From: an uncultured Acidimicrobiales bacterium
Lineage (GTDB): Bacteria > Actinomycetota > Acidimicrobiia > Acidimicrobiales > VFJN01
Direction: 5' to 3'
Length of the DNA stretch: 64,000 nt
Assembly (NCBI GenBank): GCA_963739835.1
Contig: CAVUBW010000024.1
Span: 386,840 to 450,839, forward strand
Shown here: in pieces, positions 18,361 through 25,607 of the stretch
How positions within the stretch are numbered: position 1 is the stretch's first letter
How the letters are laid out: every line of letters begins with the position of its first letter
Translations under genes and position numbers: made by a program
Notes under the pieces: generated by a model
Told to the model about the DNA's origin: nothing
Seen by the model: the letters and a program-made list of their open reading frames with translations, nothing else
Database searches by the model: none

Positions 18361-19101
18361 ATGCTCGGACTACCCCCTGAGGTGCGGGCCTGCCTGTTCG
18401 ACCTCGACGGCGTGCTGACCCGCACGGCCAGCGTGCACGCCGCCGCCTGGAAGCAGATGTTCGACGAGTACCTCACCGACCGAGCGGCCAGGACGGGCGA
18501 GCCGTTCCGGCCGTTCGAGCCGACCGACTACGACCGCTACGTCGACGGCCGGCCCCGGCTCGACGGCACCCGCGGGTTCCTCCGGTCCCGCGGTATCGAG
18601 CTGCCCGAGGGCGAGCCGTCTGATCCGCCGGGCGCAGAGACCATCCAGGGGCTGAGCACCCGGAAGAACAACCTCGTGCTGGCTCTCCTGGCGACCGAGG
18701 TCGAGGTGTTCGAGGGCTCGGTGGGCTATGTGCGGGCCGTGCGGGACGCAGGACTGGCGACCGCGGTCGTGTCGTCGAGCGCCAACACCCACACCGTGCT
18801 GGCCGTCGCCGGGATCGAGGACCTGTTCGACACGGTGGTCGACGGCAACGTCGCCCAGGAGCAGCACCTGGCCGGCAAGCCGGCGCCGGACACGTTCCGA
18901 CATGCGGCCGAGGTGCTGGGCGCGACGCCCGCGAGCGCCGCCGTGTTCGAGGACGCCATCGCCGGCGTCGAGAGCGGGCGGGCCGGTGGCTTCGCCCTGG
19001 TGGTCGGCGTCGACCGCGTCGGCCAGGCCGACGAGCTGCTGGCGCACGGGGCCGACGTGGTGGTGCAGGACCTCGCCGAATTGCTGGAGGAGGATTCGTG
19101 A
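18361..19101 (+). CDS. pgmB: beta-phosphoglucomutase-family HAD hydrolase
   Basis: [38 protein letters not shown]...[12 protein letters not shown]...GKPAPDTF...[17 protein letters not shown]. Stop overlaps the start of the GH65 gene. Confidence 0.8.
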
Positions 19102-21470
19102 GCGACCCGATTGCCCCGACGCCCCGCCGGGTGTTCTCGGTCGAGCCGTGGACGGTGACCGAGAACGAGCTGAACCTCGACGCGCTGGGCCGCACCGAGT
19201 CGGTGTTCGCCTTGTCGAACGGCCATATCGGCCTGCGGGCCAACCTCGACGAGGGCGACCCCCACGGCCTGCCCGGGACCTACCTGAACTCGTTCTACGA
19301 GCTGCGGCCGCTGCCGTACGTCGAGCGGGGCTACGGCTACCCGGAGTCGGGCCAGACGATCATCAACGTCACCAACGGCAAGCTCATCCGGCTGCTGGTC
19401 GACGACGAGCCGTTCGACGTCCGCTACGGCACGCTGACGTCCCACGTCCGCCGCCTCGACATGCGGACGGGGACCCTGCGCCGGGAGGTCGAGTGGACGT
19501 CGCCGGCCGGCGACTCGGTCCGCATCCGGACCACGCGGTTGGTGTCGCTCTCCCAGCGTGCGGTCGCGGCGATCTGCTACGAGATCGCCCCGGTCGACGA
19601 CTCGCTGCGGATCGTCCTCCAGTCCGAGCTTGTGGCAAACGAGGAGCTGCCCGATCTCGGCCGCGACCCCCGCACGGCCGCGATGCTGGAACGCCCGCTG
19701 GTGGCCGAGGAGCACACGGTGTCGGACACGAAGGCGGTGATGCTGCACCGCACCCGCCAGAGCGGGCTGCGCATCGCGGCCGGCATGCGTCACGTCATCG
19801 ACGGCCCGGAGAACACGCACCTGGACATCTGGGGCTCGGACGACGTGTGCCGCCTCACGCTCGCCACCCGGCTGCGGCCGGGCGAGCGGCTGCGGATGGT
19901 CAAGTTCCTGGCCTACGGCTGGTCGAGCCAGCGGACCCGGCCCGCTTTGCACGACCAGGTGGTGGCGGCGCTGGCGCAGGCCTACCTGACCGGCTGGGAG
20001 GGGCTTCTGGCCGAGCAGCGGGCCTACCTGGACATGTTCTGGCGGCACGGCGACGTCGAGCTTGAGGGCGACGCCGAGGTGCAGCAGGCGGTGCGGTTCG
20101 CCATGTTCCACATCCTCCAGGCGGCCGCCCGGGCCGAGCAGCGGCCGATCCCGAGCAAGGGCCTCACCGGCCCCGGTTACGACGGGCACACGTTCTGGGA
20201 CACGGAGACGTTCGTGCTGCCGGTCCTCACCTACACCAACGCCGACTCGGCCGCCTCGGTGCTCACATGGCGCAAGCTCACGCTGGACATCGCCGCCGAG
20301 CGCGCCCGCGAGCTCAACCTGGAGGGCGCCGCGTTCCCGTGGCGCACGATCCGGGGCCGGGAGTCGTCCGGCTACTGGCCCGCGAGCACGGCCGCGTTCC
20401 ACATCAACGCCGACATCGCCGACGCCGCGGTCCGCTACCTCGACGCGACGGGCGACGAACGGTGGGAGCACGACGTGGGGGTCGACCTGCTGGTCCAGAC
20501 GGCGCGGCTGTGGCGGAGCCTGGGCCACCACGACGGCGCCGGCCGGTTCCGCATCGACGGCGTGACCGGGCCGGACGAGTACAGCTGCCTGGCCGACAAC
20601 AACGTGTACACGAACCTCATGGCCGAGCAGAACCTGCGGATGGCCGCGGTCGTCGCCGCGCGCAACCCGGACCGGGCGACCGATCTCGGGGTGACGACCG
20701 AGGAGGCGGCCGCGTGGCGGGACGCCGCCGAGGCGATGGTCGTGCCCTATGACGAGAAGCTGGGGGTGCACCCGCAGAGCGAGAGCTTCACCGACCACGC
20801 CGTGTGGGACTTCGCCGGCACCCCGCCCGACCAGTACCCCCTGCTGCTGCACTACTCGTACTTCGACCTGTACCGGAAGCAGGTGGTGAAGCAGGCCGAC
20901 CTGGTGCTGGCGCTGCACCGGCGGGGCGACGCCTTCAGCTTCGACGAGAAGGACCGCGACTTCCGCTACTACGAGGCCCTCACGGTGCGGGACTCGTCGC
21001 TGTCCGCCGGCACCCAGTCCGTGGTGGCGGCCGAGCTGGGCTACCTGGAGCTGGCGCACGACTACCTGGCCGAGGCCGCGCTCATGGACATCGAGGACCG
21101 GGCGCACAACACGCGCGACGGGCTCCACCTGGCGTCCCTCGCCGGCGCCTGGACCGCGCTCGTCGAGGGCCTGGGCGGGATGAGGGCCCGGGACGGCCGG
21201 CTCTCGTTCGGGCCCCGCCTGCCGGCGGGGATCAGCCGGCTCACGTTCCGGGTCTGCTACCGGGGTAGCTGCATCCACGTCGTCACCGACGGCGACACCG
21301 CGACGTACCGGGTCCAGGAGGGCCCGCCGATGACGATCACCCACCACGGCGAGCCGGTCCAGGTGGGGGAGACGCCGGTCGAGCTGGCGATCGAGCATCT
21401 GCCGACCCGGCCCCGGCCGCACCAGCCCCCGGGTCGGGAGCCGGAGCGGCGGGGCCAGACGGTCGAGTAG
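19098..21470 (+). CDS. glycoside hydrolase family 65 disaccharide phosphorylase (trehalose/maltose/kojibiose type)
   Basis: Clean 790-aa ORF: ...[20 protein letters not shown]...[18 protein letters not shown]...NINADIADA...[12 protein letters not shown]...[17 protein letters not shown]. Coupled to a beta-PGM gene, as is usual for GH65 phosphorylases. Confidence 0.85.
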
Positions 21471-21473
21471 GCG

Positions 21474-22600
21474 TCAGGTGATGTCGAGCATCCGCTGGAG
21501 GGCGACGCGTGCCCACTCGGCGGTCTCGGCGTCGACGGTGATCTGGTTCACGACCTCGCCGCGCGACCAGCTCGTCGAGCACCCAGGCCAGGTGGGGCTC
21601 GTCGATGCGGAACATCGTCGAGCACGGGCAGATCAGCGGGTCGAGCGACACGACGGTCTTGTCGGGGTGCTCGGCGGCCAGGCGCTGGACCAGGTGGATC
21701 TCGGTGCCGACGCCGATGGCGGCGCCGGCGGGCGCGTCGTCCACGCGCCCGATGATGGCGTCGGTCGAGCCGACCTGGTCGGCGAGCTCGCACGACCTCG
21801 TGCGCGCACTCGGGGTGCACGATCACGATGCCGTCGGGGTGCTCGGCCCGGAAGGCGGCGACGTGCTCGGGCCGGAACCGCTGGTGCACCGAGCAGTGGC
21901 CCTTCCACAGGAGGAACGTCGCCTCCTTGACGTCGCGCCTCGTCGAGGCCGCCGAGCTCGCGGCGCGGGTTCCACACCCGCATGTGCGTCCAGCGGCGTA
22001 GCCCATGGCCACGCCGGTGTTGCGGCCGAGGTGCTGGTCGGGGAAGAAGAGCACCTGGTCACCGACGCCGGCGTCCCGCTGCGGCCCCCGCCGAGCGCCC
22101 ACTCGAGCACGGCCCGGGCGTTGGACGAGGTGCACACGGCGCCGCCGTGGCGCGCCGACGAACGCCTTGAGGGCGGCGGACGAGTTCATGTAGGTGATCG
22201 GCACGACCCGGTCGATGTCGGTGACGTCGGCGAGGGCGTCCCACGCCTCCTCGACCTCGTCGATGTCGGCCATGTCGGCCATCGAGCACCCGGCGTTGAG
22301 GTCGGGGAGGATGACGCGGCTGGTGGTCGCCGGTGAGGATGTCGGCCGACTCGGCCATGAAGTGCACGCCGCAGAACACGATGAACTCGGCCTGCGGGCC
22401 GCTGCTGGGCGAGCACGGACAGCCGGAACGAGTCGCCGCGGGCGTCGGCCCAGCGGATGACCTCGTCGCGCTGGTAGTGGTGGCCGAGGATGAAGAGGCG
22501 GTCACCGAGCGCGGCCTTGGCCGCAGCGATCCGCCGGGCCGAGCTCGTCCGGGGACGCGACGGTGTACCGCTCGGCGAGCGGGCTCTGGAGCCGCAGCAT
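21474..22600 (-). CDS. nadA: quinolinate synthase, many +1 extra bases
   Basis: RBS ggagga then ATG 22600: MLRLQSPLAERYTVASPDEL...LFILGHHYQRDEVIRWAD...FCGVHFMAESADIL...NAGCSMADMADIDEVE...ITYMNSSAALKAF...WKGHCSVHQRF...VHPECAHEV...STMFRID. Confidence 0.88.
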
Positions 22601-22628
22601 GTTGGGGATCCTCCAAAGTGCGATGGCT

Positions 22629-22690
22629 CCGGTTGCGGCCGGTGGGGACAGCCTGGTCGCCCCCCACGGGGATGTCGGCCCCGGAACCGA
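22629..22690 (-). promoter_or_regulatory. candidate NAD+ class I (nadA-motif-like) riboswitch domain in the nadA leader
   Basis: Minus strand: UCGGUU-ccgg-GGCCG-ACAUCCCC-GUGGGG-(14 nt loop)-CCCCAC-CGGCC-gc-AACCGG. Two coaxial helices are separated by a one-sided ACANCCCC bulge, 15 nt upstream of the RBS. GGGGAUGUCG at 22767-22758 can pair with the bulge instead. Confidence 0.45.
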
Positions 22691-22817
22691 TATGCCGCCG
22701 GAATACCAGGCCGGCTTGGCGGAGAGTCTACGGGGTGAACGGCAGCTGACCTCCAGGCGACATCCCCGGCCGGGTCCCTGGCCATGGCGGACAATCGGCG
22801 CGGTGACCTCGACCAGG

Positions 22818-22867
22818 AGTTCTACGCGGAAACGGTCGCTATAGCGACCACTTCCGGGACAAACGTC
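22818..22867 (-). repeat. hairpin element copy B (perfect 16-bp palindrome GGTCGCTATAGCGACC), inverted relative to copy A
   Basis: The reverse complement acgtttgtcccggaagtggtcgctatagcgaccgtttccgcgtagaac aligns with copy A. The middle helix differs in sequence but still pairs (cggaa/ttccg versus cgccga/tcggcg). Confidence 0.6.
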
Positions 22868-22913
22868 GAGGCCGCCCGGCCCGGGGCGGTCGGGTCGCGC
22901 CGGCGCCATTAGC

Positions 22914-24841
22914 GTGCAGAGCGTGGTGCAGCGACCGCCGGCCGGCACGATCCCCGACGCTCCCGGCTCCTACCAGTTCAAGGACGCGCGAGGGCCGCGT
23001 CATCTACGTCGGCAAGGCCAAGCGCCTGCGCCAGCGGCTGTCGAACTACTTCCAGGACCCGCCGAGCGCTGCAGCCCCGCACCGCCCAGATGGTGGCCAC
23101 CGCCGAGACCGTCGAGTGGATCCAGGTCCGCAACGAGGTCGAGGCGCTCATGCTCGAGTACAGCCTCATCAAGCAGCACCGGCCCCGCTTCAACATCCGC
23201 CTGCAGGACGACAAGTCGCTACCCGTTCCTCGCCGTCACCCTCGACGAGGAGTGGCCCCGGGCCATGGTGATGCGGGGCCGCAAGCGCAAGGGCGTCCGC
23301 TACTTCGGGCCCTACGCCCACGCCTACGCCATCCGCGAGACGCTCGACCTGCTGCTGCGCACCTTCCCGATCCGCACCTGCACCGACAACAAGTTCGACC
23401 GGCACGAGCGGCTCGGGCGGCCGTGCCTGCTGTTCCACATCGAGAAGTGCTCCGGCCCCTGCGTCGGCGAGATCGACCGCGGAGAGCTACGACCGGCTCG
23501 TCGCCGAGCTGCTCGACTTCCTCGACGGCGACACCGACGCCGATCGTCGACCGGCTCGAGGCAGCAGATGACGGGCCGCGGCCGACGACGCTCGAGTTCG
23601 AGCGGGCCGCCCGGCTCCGCGACCAGCTGACGACGGTGCGCAAGGCCATCGAGCGCCAGCAGATGGTGGCCGAGCGCAACGAGGACCTCGACGTCATCGG
23701 CATCGCCGAGGACGAGCTCGAGGCGGCGGTGCAGGTGTTCTTCGTGCGCCGGGGCCGGGTCGTCGGCCGCAAGGGCTTCGTCGTCGACAAGGTCGAGGAC
23801 GTCGGCCCCGGCGAGCTCGTCGGCCGCATCCTCGAGGAGCTCTACGGCGACGAGCCGCCGCTCGGCATGCCCCGCAGCAGGTGCTCGTGCCGACCGAGCC
23901 CGACGACCTCGAGCTCTACGAGGAGTTGCTCGGCCTAGCTGCGGGGCTCGCCGGGTGCGACGTCCGGGTGCCGCAGCGGGGCGACAAGCGCGAGCTCGCA
24001 GGACACGGTCACCCGCAACGCCGCCGAGGAGTTCACCCGCCACCGGCTGCGCCGGGCCGCCGACCACAACGCCCGGGCCCAGGCCCTCAACGCGCTGCAG
24101 GAGGCGCTCGACCTGCCCGAGGCCCCGCTGCGCATCGAGTGCTACGACATGAGCCACCTCCAGGGCACCGACTACGTCGGGTCGATGGTGGTGATGGAGG
24201 ACGGCCTCCCCAAGCAAGTCCGACTACCGCCGCTTCAAGGTCCGGACGCGTCGACGGCAACGACGACTTCGCCGCCATGGAGGAGGTGCTCACCCGCCGG
24301 CTCACGCGCCTACCTCGACGAGCGCGACGCAGCCGGTGGGCGAGCGCGCCGGCAAGTTCGCCTACCCGCCGCAGCTGCTGCTGGTCGACGGCGGCAAGGG
24401 CCAGCTCAGCGTGGCGGTGCGGGTGCTCGAGGAGCTCGGGCCTCGACGAGGAGATCCCGGTGGCGTCGCTGGCCAAGCGGTTCGAGGAGGTGTACGTGCC
24501 CGGCCGGTCCGACCCGGTGCGCGATCCCGCGCGAGTCCGAGGCGCTGTACCTGCTGCAGCGGATCCGCGACGAGGCGCACCGCTTCGCCATCACCTACCA
24601 CCGCGAGCTGCGGGGCAAGCGGATGACGACGTCGGTGCTCGACGACATCCCGGGCCTCGGCCCGACCCGCCGCAAGCGCCTCATCAAGGAGCTGGGCGGC
24701 GTCAACGCCGTGAAGCAGGCGTCCCGCGACGACCTGCGGGCGCTGTCGTGGCTGCCCGACGCCGTGGCCGACGCCGTGTACGACAAGCTCCACGCCGTCC
24801 CGCTGGCCCGCCGGCCCGGCGCGCGGGGGAGCCGGCGGTGA
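22914..24841 (+). CDS. uvrC: excinuclease ABC subunit C, many +1 extra bases
   Basis: ...[29 protein letters not shown]...[34 protein letters not shown]...[27 protein letters not shown]...[14 protein letters not shown]...[13 protein letters not shown]...[35 protein letters not shown]. Confidence 0.9.
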
Positions 24842-25607
24842 GCGAGCCCGGCCGACGGCGAGCCGGCGCGAGCCGGCCGCTCGACCACGCGGCCGTGTGG
24901 GAGCGCCACGCGGCCTGGTGGCAGGCCGAGTTCACCGACGGCGCCGACCCCGAGTACGACGGAGCAGATCCTGCCGCTCGCCGCCGCGCCACCTGGCCGG
25001 AGCGGCCGCGGGTGCTCGACGTCGGCTGCGGCGAGGGCCAGGTCGCCCGGCTGCTCGTCGGCGAGGGCGCCAGGCGGGTCGTCGGGGTCGACCCGCTCGG
25101 TCGCCCAGATCGCCGAGGCGGCCCGTCTGGGCGGCGGCGCCGGCCTACGTGCGGGCGTCGGCGACAGCCCTGCCGCTGCCGCTCGGCCGGCTTCGACGCG
25201 GTCGTGGCCTGCCTCGTCTTCGAGCACATCCCCGACCTCGACGGGGCGCTCGACGAGGTCGCCCGGGTGCTGCGCCCGGGCGGCCGCTTCGTCTGTTCTT
25301 CCTGAACCACCCGCTGCTCCAGACGCCCGGGCAGCGGCTGGATCGACGACCAGATCCTCGACCCGCCCGAGCAGTACTGGCGCATCGGGCCCTACCTCCC
25401 CGAGGCGCACACGGTCGAGGAGGTCGAGCCGGCGTGTTCATGCCGTTCTTCCACCGCCCGCTCAGCCGCTACGTCAACGCCCTGGCCGACCGCGGCCTGT
25501 ACCTGACCCGCATGGTCGAGCCCGCGCCCCCGCCCGGGTTCCTGGCCGCGGCACCCGAGTACGCCGGGGCGGCGACGATCCCGCGGCTCCTGCTGCTGCG
25601 GGCCTGA
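24838..25607 (+). CDS. class I SAM-dependent methyltransferase, several +1 extra bases
   Basis: GTG overlaps the uvrC stop (GTGA). [87 protein letters not shown]. Confidence 0.7.

Follow-up and report, generated by a model that had tools for sequence, protein, structure and literature searches.

The leader of nadA, the gene for quinolinate synthase A, in an uncultured Acidimicrobiales bacterium carries what comparative sequence evidence indicates is a real, conserved folded RNA. We put the probability at roughly 60% that this RNA, by analogy with the solved structure of domain 1 of that class, is a single-domain relative of the NAD+-I (nadA-motif) riboswitch. The reading draws on the conservation of the RNA, its association with nadA, the covariation of its helices, the retention of the ligand-pocket residues and a hairpin holding the Shine-Dalgarno (SD) sequence that abuts helix P1. 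It is weakened by the failure of the Rfam model to recognize the RNA, by a CUG in place of the GYG loop, by an SD that is mostly paired in all models and by the ability of domain 1 of the known riboswitch to bind ATP and ADP. Coordinates refer to the window, by which we mean the whole 64,000-nucleotide stretch of DNA that was analysed. An earlier note, made from the letters of the window, had proposed an NAD+-I riboswitch here; of that identification, the domain-1 bulge and the base pairs of the pocket are kept in the RNA, but detection by the Rfam nadA model fails.

Conservation and covariation of the leader RNA

On the single sequence alone, the likeness to the nadA motif is not beyond chance. 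The Rfam nadA model (RF03013, Rfam 15), which describes one domain in 62 positions and has a gathering score of 37.5 bits, matched positions 22637-22680 of the minus strand with ACAUCCCC aligned on the consensus bulge. This covariance-model search, which the earlier note had proposed as a check, gave 21.2 bits (E-value 0.07 over the whole genome), below the gathering score, and was the only NAD-related Rfam match at E<=10 within 21500-24000. None of 41 related genomes had an RF03013 match above the cut-off, and the model gave no match at E<=10 against 20 diverse members of the family described below. The genome's best RF03013 match, at 22.4 bits, falls inside a glycosyltransferase-like coding region containing CAACAUCCCCG (L001, G000 contig C15:408126-408197), a caution on sub-threshold matches in GC-rich DNA. 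Since the leader's score is sub-threshold, a chance match in coding sequence is as good and other members are missed, the Rfam scan is evidence in neither direction. The minimum free energy fold of the window leader recovers P1, the bulge and P1a with a z-score of -0.26, no stabler than shuffled sequences, a statistic that is uninformative in sequence of 70% GC.

Comparison with relatives gave a different kind of evidence. With nadA located in 40 relatives using PF02445, ACA[U/A]CCCC was found at a fixed distance upstream of the gene in every one of the 16 leaders from the window's genus for which sequence was available, as well as in four further families of the order, and was not found upstream of a shorter NadA subtype. 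A covariance model of 94 positions and 25 base pairs, R1, was built from 12 nadA leaders. It matched 88 of 151 genomes in a sample of Acidimicrobiales (43-108 bits, about 60 families), 46 of 151 in a sample of Acidimicrobiia, 34 of these from other orders, and 4 of 151 in a sample of Actinomycetota; all four were Acidimicrobiia, with no match outside that class in the sample. Every matched genome had exactly one full-length match, and NadA was encoded downstream on the same strand for all 95 aligned copies, at a median of 25 nt from aptamer to coding match. An exact-pattern scan of named genomes, rechecked with R1, confirmed as bearers Acidimicrobiia, Acidimicrobiales, Microthrixaceae and Iamiaceae MAGs, so the earlier note was right to place the RNA in an actinobacterial context (phylum Actinomycetota, class Acidimicrobiia). 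Further matches to the pattern, in Mycobacterium, Amycolatopsis, Hydrogenophaga, Roseomonas, Petrimonas and Myxococcota, were not upheld by R1 and were set aside as chance.

Some members of the order do without the RNA. Two loci, L047 (G032) and L064 (G039), encode the long, MxRLQ-type NadA, yet have no trace of the RNA upstream of nadA, and genomes with the shorter NadA subtype (G027, G028, G030, G033, G035 and G038) also lack it. The RNA has evidently been lost or replaced in some lineages.

In the alignment of 95 sequences, 95.6% of pair cells hold standard pairs, compared with 82% in column shuffles and 35-44% when partners are slid by 1-3 columns, and both partners vary in 25 of the 30 pairs. 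Covariation scores 0.421 in the real alignment, 0.16 after shuffling and about 0.045 after sliding. All of these values are somewhat inflated, as the alignment had been fitted to the nested helices. All six pairs of P0 change on both sides (95.1% of cells paired), as do 11 of 12 in P1, whose helices are 97.4% and 99.8% paired. The pseudoknot was left out of the model that made the alignment; its 5-bp helix is 99.2% paired, its centre pair occurs in all four Watson-Crick combinations (U:A 67, C:G 16, G:C 9, A:U 2), and in two neighbouring pairs C:G gives way to U:A in some sequences. Two compensated substitutions set the window apart from its congeners: CCUGG/CCAGG for CCCGG/CCGGG and GGCCG/CGGCC for GGACG/CGUCC. 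The pair counts include G:U wobbles (e.g. U:G 15 at pair 67:124), which indicates that the constraint acts on the RNA of this strand and not on DNA. As a comparative result, covariation establishes the fold of P0, P1, bulge, P1a and pseudoknot. The one-sided ACANCCCC bulge between coaxial helices upstream of nadA, the core of the earlier proposal, is thus conserved with compensatory changes in 95 nadA leaders; the earlier note had said that an absence of conserved bulge and helices from the leaders of relatives would tell against it, and the alignment that it suggested has both conserved.

These data bear on whether the motif is a chance resemblance in GC-rich DNA, or an operator acting as DNA rather than RNA. 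The weak single-sequence statistics and the equally good Rfam match inside a coding region would fit such an origin, but covariation with G:U wobbles and a pseudoknot across 95 sequences does not, nor does the fixed distance to the nadA start and to the -10 box. With one copy per genome, covariation, and fixed spacing to gene and promoter, we regard this explanation as refuted for practical purposes.

Anatomy of the leader and its promoter

The aptamer spans 93 nt (22717-22625, minus strand) and is matched end to end by R1. Its parts, together with the promoter, the expression platform and the gene, are listed in Table 1.

Table 1. Features of the nadA leader in window coordinates
Feature	Position	Strand	Description
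-35-like AGGTCA	22747-22752	-	Weak; part of the same putative promoter assignment as the -10-like hexamer
-10-like hexamer TAGACT	22725-22730	-	Putative -10 box; conserved TANNNT box across leaders
P0 5' hairpin	22697-22716	-	Stem GCCGG 22715-22711 / CCGGC 22701-22697; loop contains CCUGG
Pseudoknot 5' strand CCUGG, in P0 loop	22706-22710	-	Pairs with CCAGG 22656-22652
Linker CAUAUC between P0 and P1	22689-22694	-	Conserved columns
P1 5' strand	22676-22688	-	Outer GGUUCCGG 22688-22681; inner GGCCG 22680-22676
One-sided 8-nt bulge ACAUCCCC	22668-22675	-	Presumed ligand pocket; ACANCCCC pattern
P1a	22642-22667	-	GUGGGGG 22667-22661 with UCCCCAC 22648-22642
12-nt P1a loop GCGACCAGGCUG	22660-22649	-	Contains pseudoknot 3' strand CCAGG 22656-22652
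P1 3' strand	22625-22641	-	Inner CGGCC 22641-22637; bulge GCAA 22636-22633; outer CCGGAGCC 22632-22625
Expression platform	22598-22624	-	Spacer, SD GGAGG 22614-22610, nadA start ATG 22600-22598
nadA (quinolinate synthase A)	21474-22600	-	Three-frame translations; PF02445 matches in four pieces

P1 comprises 13 bp, with its outer and inner parts contiguous on the 5' strand and separated on the 3' strand by the 4-nt GCAA bulge (22636-22633). Its penultimate pair, C22677:G22640 (columns 73:114), is C:G in all 95 sequences. The columns of the presumed pocket are likewise close to fixed (A91, C94, A94, N, C84, C91, C94 and C95 out of 95, where N is U47/A40/C6/G1), and opposite this bulge the 3' strand runs unbroken between P1a and P1. 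P1a opens with a pair that is G:C in 95 of 95 sequences, followed by one divided between C:G (46) and U:A (45); in most relatives the 5' strand of P1a carries a bulge of 1-3 nt. The loop closed by P1a, GGCGACC-R-GGCUG, is nearly invariant across the alignment and has no local stem, its CCRGG pairing instead with the loop of P0. Two further elements are conserved and have no assigned pairing partner: the linker CAUAUC (22689-22694; C77, A84, U74, A76, U65 and C70 out of 95) and the final A of the 3' bulge of P1 (22633-22636; A in 78 of 95). Both are candidates for a tertiary contact.

The segments listed in the earlier note all lie on the minus strand where it had put them: UCGGUU (22690-22685), AACCGG (22634-22629), GGCCG (22680-22676), CGGCC (22641-22637), ACAUCCCC (22675-22668), GUGGGG (22667-22662), CCCCAC (22647-22642) and GGGGAUGUCG (22767-22758). 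Its outer helix, UCGGUU with AACCGG, needs revision: covariation favours GGUUCCGG (22688-22681) with CCGGAGCC (22632-22625), and the original register is possible only through a CCGG palindrome in the window's genus. The hairpin P0, the pseudoknot and the SD hairpin were absent from that description.

The putative promoter disposes of two other proposed elements. In nearly all 95 leaders, a TANNNT box (TACACT, TAGACT, TAAACT or TACAAT) stands 6-8 nt 5' of the model match or first paired base, from which transcription probably starts at about 22717-22719, at the foot of the first hairpin, P0. In congeners, TTGTCA lies about 17-18 nt upstream of the -10 box; a strict sigma-70 promoter scan found no match in the window leader. 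The segment GGGGAUGUCG, which had been suggested to form a helix mutually exclusive with the aptamer, lies 5' of the conserved -10 box, hence probably outside the transcript, and is unconserved in relatives. The string UUCACCCCGUAG, suggested as a degenerate partner domain near 22740-22729, is present on the minus strand at about 22739-22728, where it shares positions with both the spacer of the promoter and the -10 hexamer TAGACT (22730-22725). That only a single clean domain is visible holds up well: each 330-nt upstream region contains one ACA.CCCC in 21 leaders, and no second ACANCCCC-like domain was found in the leaders. P0, the aptamer and the SD hairpin take up the whole of the predicted transcript of about 120 nt from -10 box to ATG, leaving no room for one.

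The nadA reading frame opens at its ATG with MLRLQSPLAERY, preceded by GGAGG. About eight frame shifts interrupt the gene in the present assembly, as seen from three-frame translations and PF02445 matches; relatives have an intact NadA of 372 aa with the N-terminus MLRLQ. In the interval 22600-22914 nadA is solitary, with no nadB or nadC alongside, and divergent from uvrC (22914-25305, plus strand), which is itself spread across at least three frames. The GH65 gene that adjoins nadA on the other side (790 aa; 19098-21470, plus strand) is intact. The host genome of 5.66 Mb is in 28 contigs with a completeness of 63%. The frame-shifted nadA and uvrC next to an intact GH65 gene, together with this low completeness in 28 contigs, point less to pseudogenes than to indel errors clustered locally in a long-read assembly. 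Two peculiarities of the window's copy, a 5' strand of P1a shorter by 2 nt and a weak SD hairpin, may be artefacts of the same indel-rich assembly.

Relationship to known riboswitches

In domain 1 of the NAD+-I riboswitch, the ligand contacts the penultimate C:G of P1 through its adenosine, and the ACANCCCC bulge stacks its first A on the adenine and, at its narrow neck, binds two Mg2+ that hold the diphosphate; a 7-bp P1a leads to an internal loop, GYG, in which the Gs form pairs with C13 and C14 of the bulge, P1b caps the domain, and a second, similar domain carries the ribosome binding site (RBS) (PMC6859854, PMC7297122). The canonical class regulates nadA (PMC6859854). Its domain 1 binds ATP and ADP besides NAD+ and is thought to scaffold the folding of the RBS-bearing domain 2 (PMC10702441).

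The Acidimicrobiia RNA shares with domain 1 the 8-nt one-sided ACANCCCC bulge between coaxial P1 and P1a, down to the same variable fourth position (PMC7297122), as well as the C:G at the penultimate position of P1 and the G:C with which P1a begins; in NAD+-I the residues of all three make the contacts with the adenosine and the metal ions (PMC7297122). Like NAD+-I, it lies only upstream of nadA and is followed by an RBS-bearing hairpin. The differences are of several kinds. NAD+-I has two domains in tandem and comes from Acidobacteria, whereas the RNA described here has a single domain and comes from Actinomycetota, class Acidimicrobiia. It has no P1b, and in its place a 5-bp pseudoknot with the loop of an added 5' hairpin. 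GYG reads CUG (3' strand GGCUG-Y-CCCC-R-C), with one G kept at the position of G38; P1a, an uninterrupted 7 bp in NAD+-I, here carries the 1-3 nt bulge; and P1 is a 13-bp helix with a bulge on its 3' strand. With GYG changed to CUG and P1a interrupted, the tertiary lock must differ from that of NAD+-I, and where the sixth bulge base is A, the alignment has no compensating change in the loop. The GGC of the P1b 3' strand in the Koribacter NAD+-I riboswitch corresponds to part of the pseudoknot strand here, so that the partner strand of a P1b-like helix would seem to come from the P0 loop. By its defining features, then, the RNA is not a member of the described NAD+-I family and is a distinct variant around the same pocket.

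The closest precedent for the arrangement is the ubiB motif, described as a close variant of nadA domain 1 and with nine Nocardia representatives (PMC6859854; PMC7297122). It too is found in Actinobacteria and has one aptamer resembling domain 1, after which comes a simple hairpin with the RBS. It differs in preceding ubiB (aarF), whereas all copies here precede nadA; in an internal loop that reportedly stays at 7 bp from the bulge, where the loop differs here; in having no described 5' hairpin or pseudoknot; and in being rare, whereas the Acidimicrobiia RNA is class-wide. NAD+-II (the pnuC motif) is more distant: its model had no match at E<=10 within 21500-24000, and its pseudoknot includes the RBS, whereas the SD is uninvolved in the pseudoknot here. 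An analogy of architecture only, since fold and ligand are unrelated, is offered by singlet glycine riboswitches with a 'ghost aptamer', already cited in that role (PMC6859854): in a normally tandem class, one ligand domain is aided by the tertiary contacts of a small helper hairpin. Single-domain nadA riboswitches are stated in the literature to be unknown. We found no description of the Acidimicrobiia RNA in the full texts searched (subscription journals lay outside that coverage, so a prior description is possible), and Rfam 15 has no family for this nadA-leader RNA.

Proposed control of nadA translation

In 61 of 82 leaders, a pyrimidine run directly after P1 pairs with the SD. The resulting anti-SD:SD hairpin begins within 3 nt of P1 in 60 of the 82 and has the SD in its 3' arm in 62, with a median stability of -5.3 kcal/mol; the window's own hairpin is weak. 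The window leader has no detectable intrinsic terminator. With an SD hairpin adjoining P1 and no terminator, we propose translational repression. By analogy with the solved domain 1, the ADP half of NAD+ would bind at the junction of P1 and the bulge, with its adenine stacked on the first A of the bulge and in contact with the invariant penultimate C:G, and pre-organization of the pocket would fall to the pseudoknot instead of to P1b and the second domain. The ligand-stabilized aptamer would then stack on the adjoining anti-SD:SD hairpin and stabilize it, in parallel with the model in which domain 1 of NAD+-I scaffolds the RBS-bearing domain 2 (PMC10702441). nadA translation would thereby be lowered when NAD+ is plentiful, an OFF switch that we infer and consider the weak step of the scheme.

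The modelling of this step gave little help. ViennaRNA folding of 91 leaders was run in three ways: the aptamer enforced, the 5' strand of P1 blocked, and no constraint. The SD was mostly paired with or without P1 allowed (mean unpaired probability 0.27 vs 0.23), and no mutually exclusive fold was found in these leaders. A P1-dependent switch of SD accessibility was rejected, there being no consistent change across the 91, as was pairing of the 3' strand of P1 with the anti-SD, which is sterically poor and unconserved. In the window's genus, the 3' strand of P1 has another possible role, lengthening the SD hairpin through GGAACC with GGUUCC; such pairing would point to an ON switch.

An SD predicted to be paired in all modelled states, along with the failure of the Rfam model, is also what could be put forward for a structured leader that has no small-molecule ligand: one that binds a protein, governs stability or processing, or damps translation constitutively, with a convergent or coincidental likeness to ACANCCCC. 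We judge this improbable, as the 8-nt bulge pattern, its helical context and the gene all match a validated riboswitch (PMC6859854, PMC7297122), and near-invariant unpaired segments such as GGCGACC, GGCUG and CAUAUC are typical of ligand or tertiary cores.

A less easily dismissed alternative, though on the whole an unlikely one, keeps the aptamer and changes the ligand or the sign: the altered loop and pseudoknot would give a different specificity, for ADP or ATP as an energy signal, NaAD, ADP-ribose or NADP, or the element would be an ON switch. The change of GYG to CUG and the replacement of P1b could be read in this way, as could the failure of canonical domain 1 to discriminate against ATP (PMC10702441), the competition in genus g1 between the 3' strand of P1 and the stretch that follows the SD, and the lack of an OFF-type alternative fold in the modelling. 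However, an RNA that occurs once per genome and only before nadA fits the end product of the pathway better than a general energy signal, and conservation extends to the residues in contact with the ADP moiety.

If the RNA is a single-domain relative of NAD+-I that senses NAD+, the new elements might also account for specificity. P0, the pseudoknot and the invariant GGCGACC, GGCUG and CAUAUC could form contacts on the nicotinamide side, so that a single domain recognizes the whole of NAD+ and rejects ATP and ADP. We offer this as speculation that is rather unlikely to be right. If true, the RNA would be a functionally distinct NAD+ sensor, the canonical tandem riboswitch having no such discrimination in vitro, and would give a natural answer to the role of domain 2.

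The comparison has a wider interest, as NAD+-I has posed several puzzles: its reported occurrences are all in Acidobacteria, its domains invariably come as a similar pair with ligand binding confined to the first, and NAD+ and ATP are indistinguishable to it in vitro. An RNA that keeps the ADP-pocket residues, has a pseudoknotted helper hairpin for P1b and the second domain, occurs class-wide in a different phylum and always precedes nadA provides a natural comparison for three questions, namely what the second domain contributes, where specificity originates and how binding is coupled to the RBS. It would also fill a gap in how Acidimicrobiia regulate NAD synthesis, and its compactness makes it suited to structural study.

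Individual copies deserve mention. L149 (G124 contig C1:2570469-2570559) keeps P0, the pseudoknot, the loop and a downstream nadA, while the ACANCCCC bulge is missing (GACCA------CGUAGG); this copy may have decayed or may act independently of ligand. Two further copies, L211 and L218, score about 92 bits on contigs labelled 'Nocardioides sp.' (2.7 kb) and 'uncultured Bifidobacteriaceae', which are probably mis-binned or mislabelled Acidimicrobiia.
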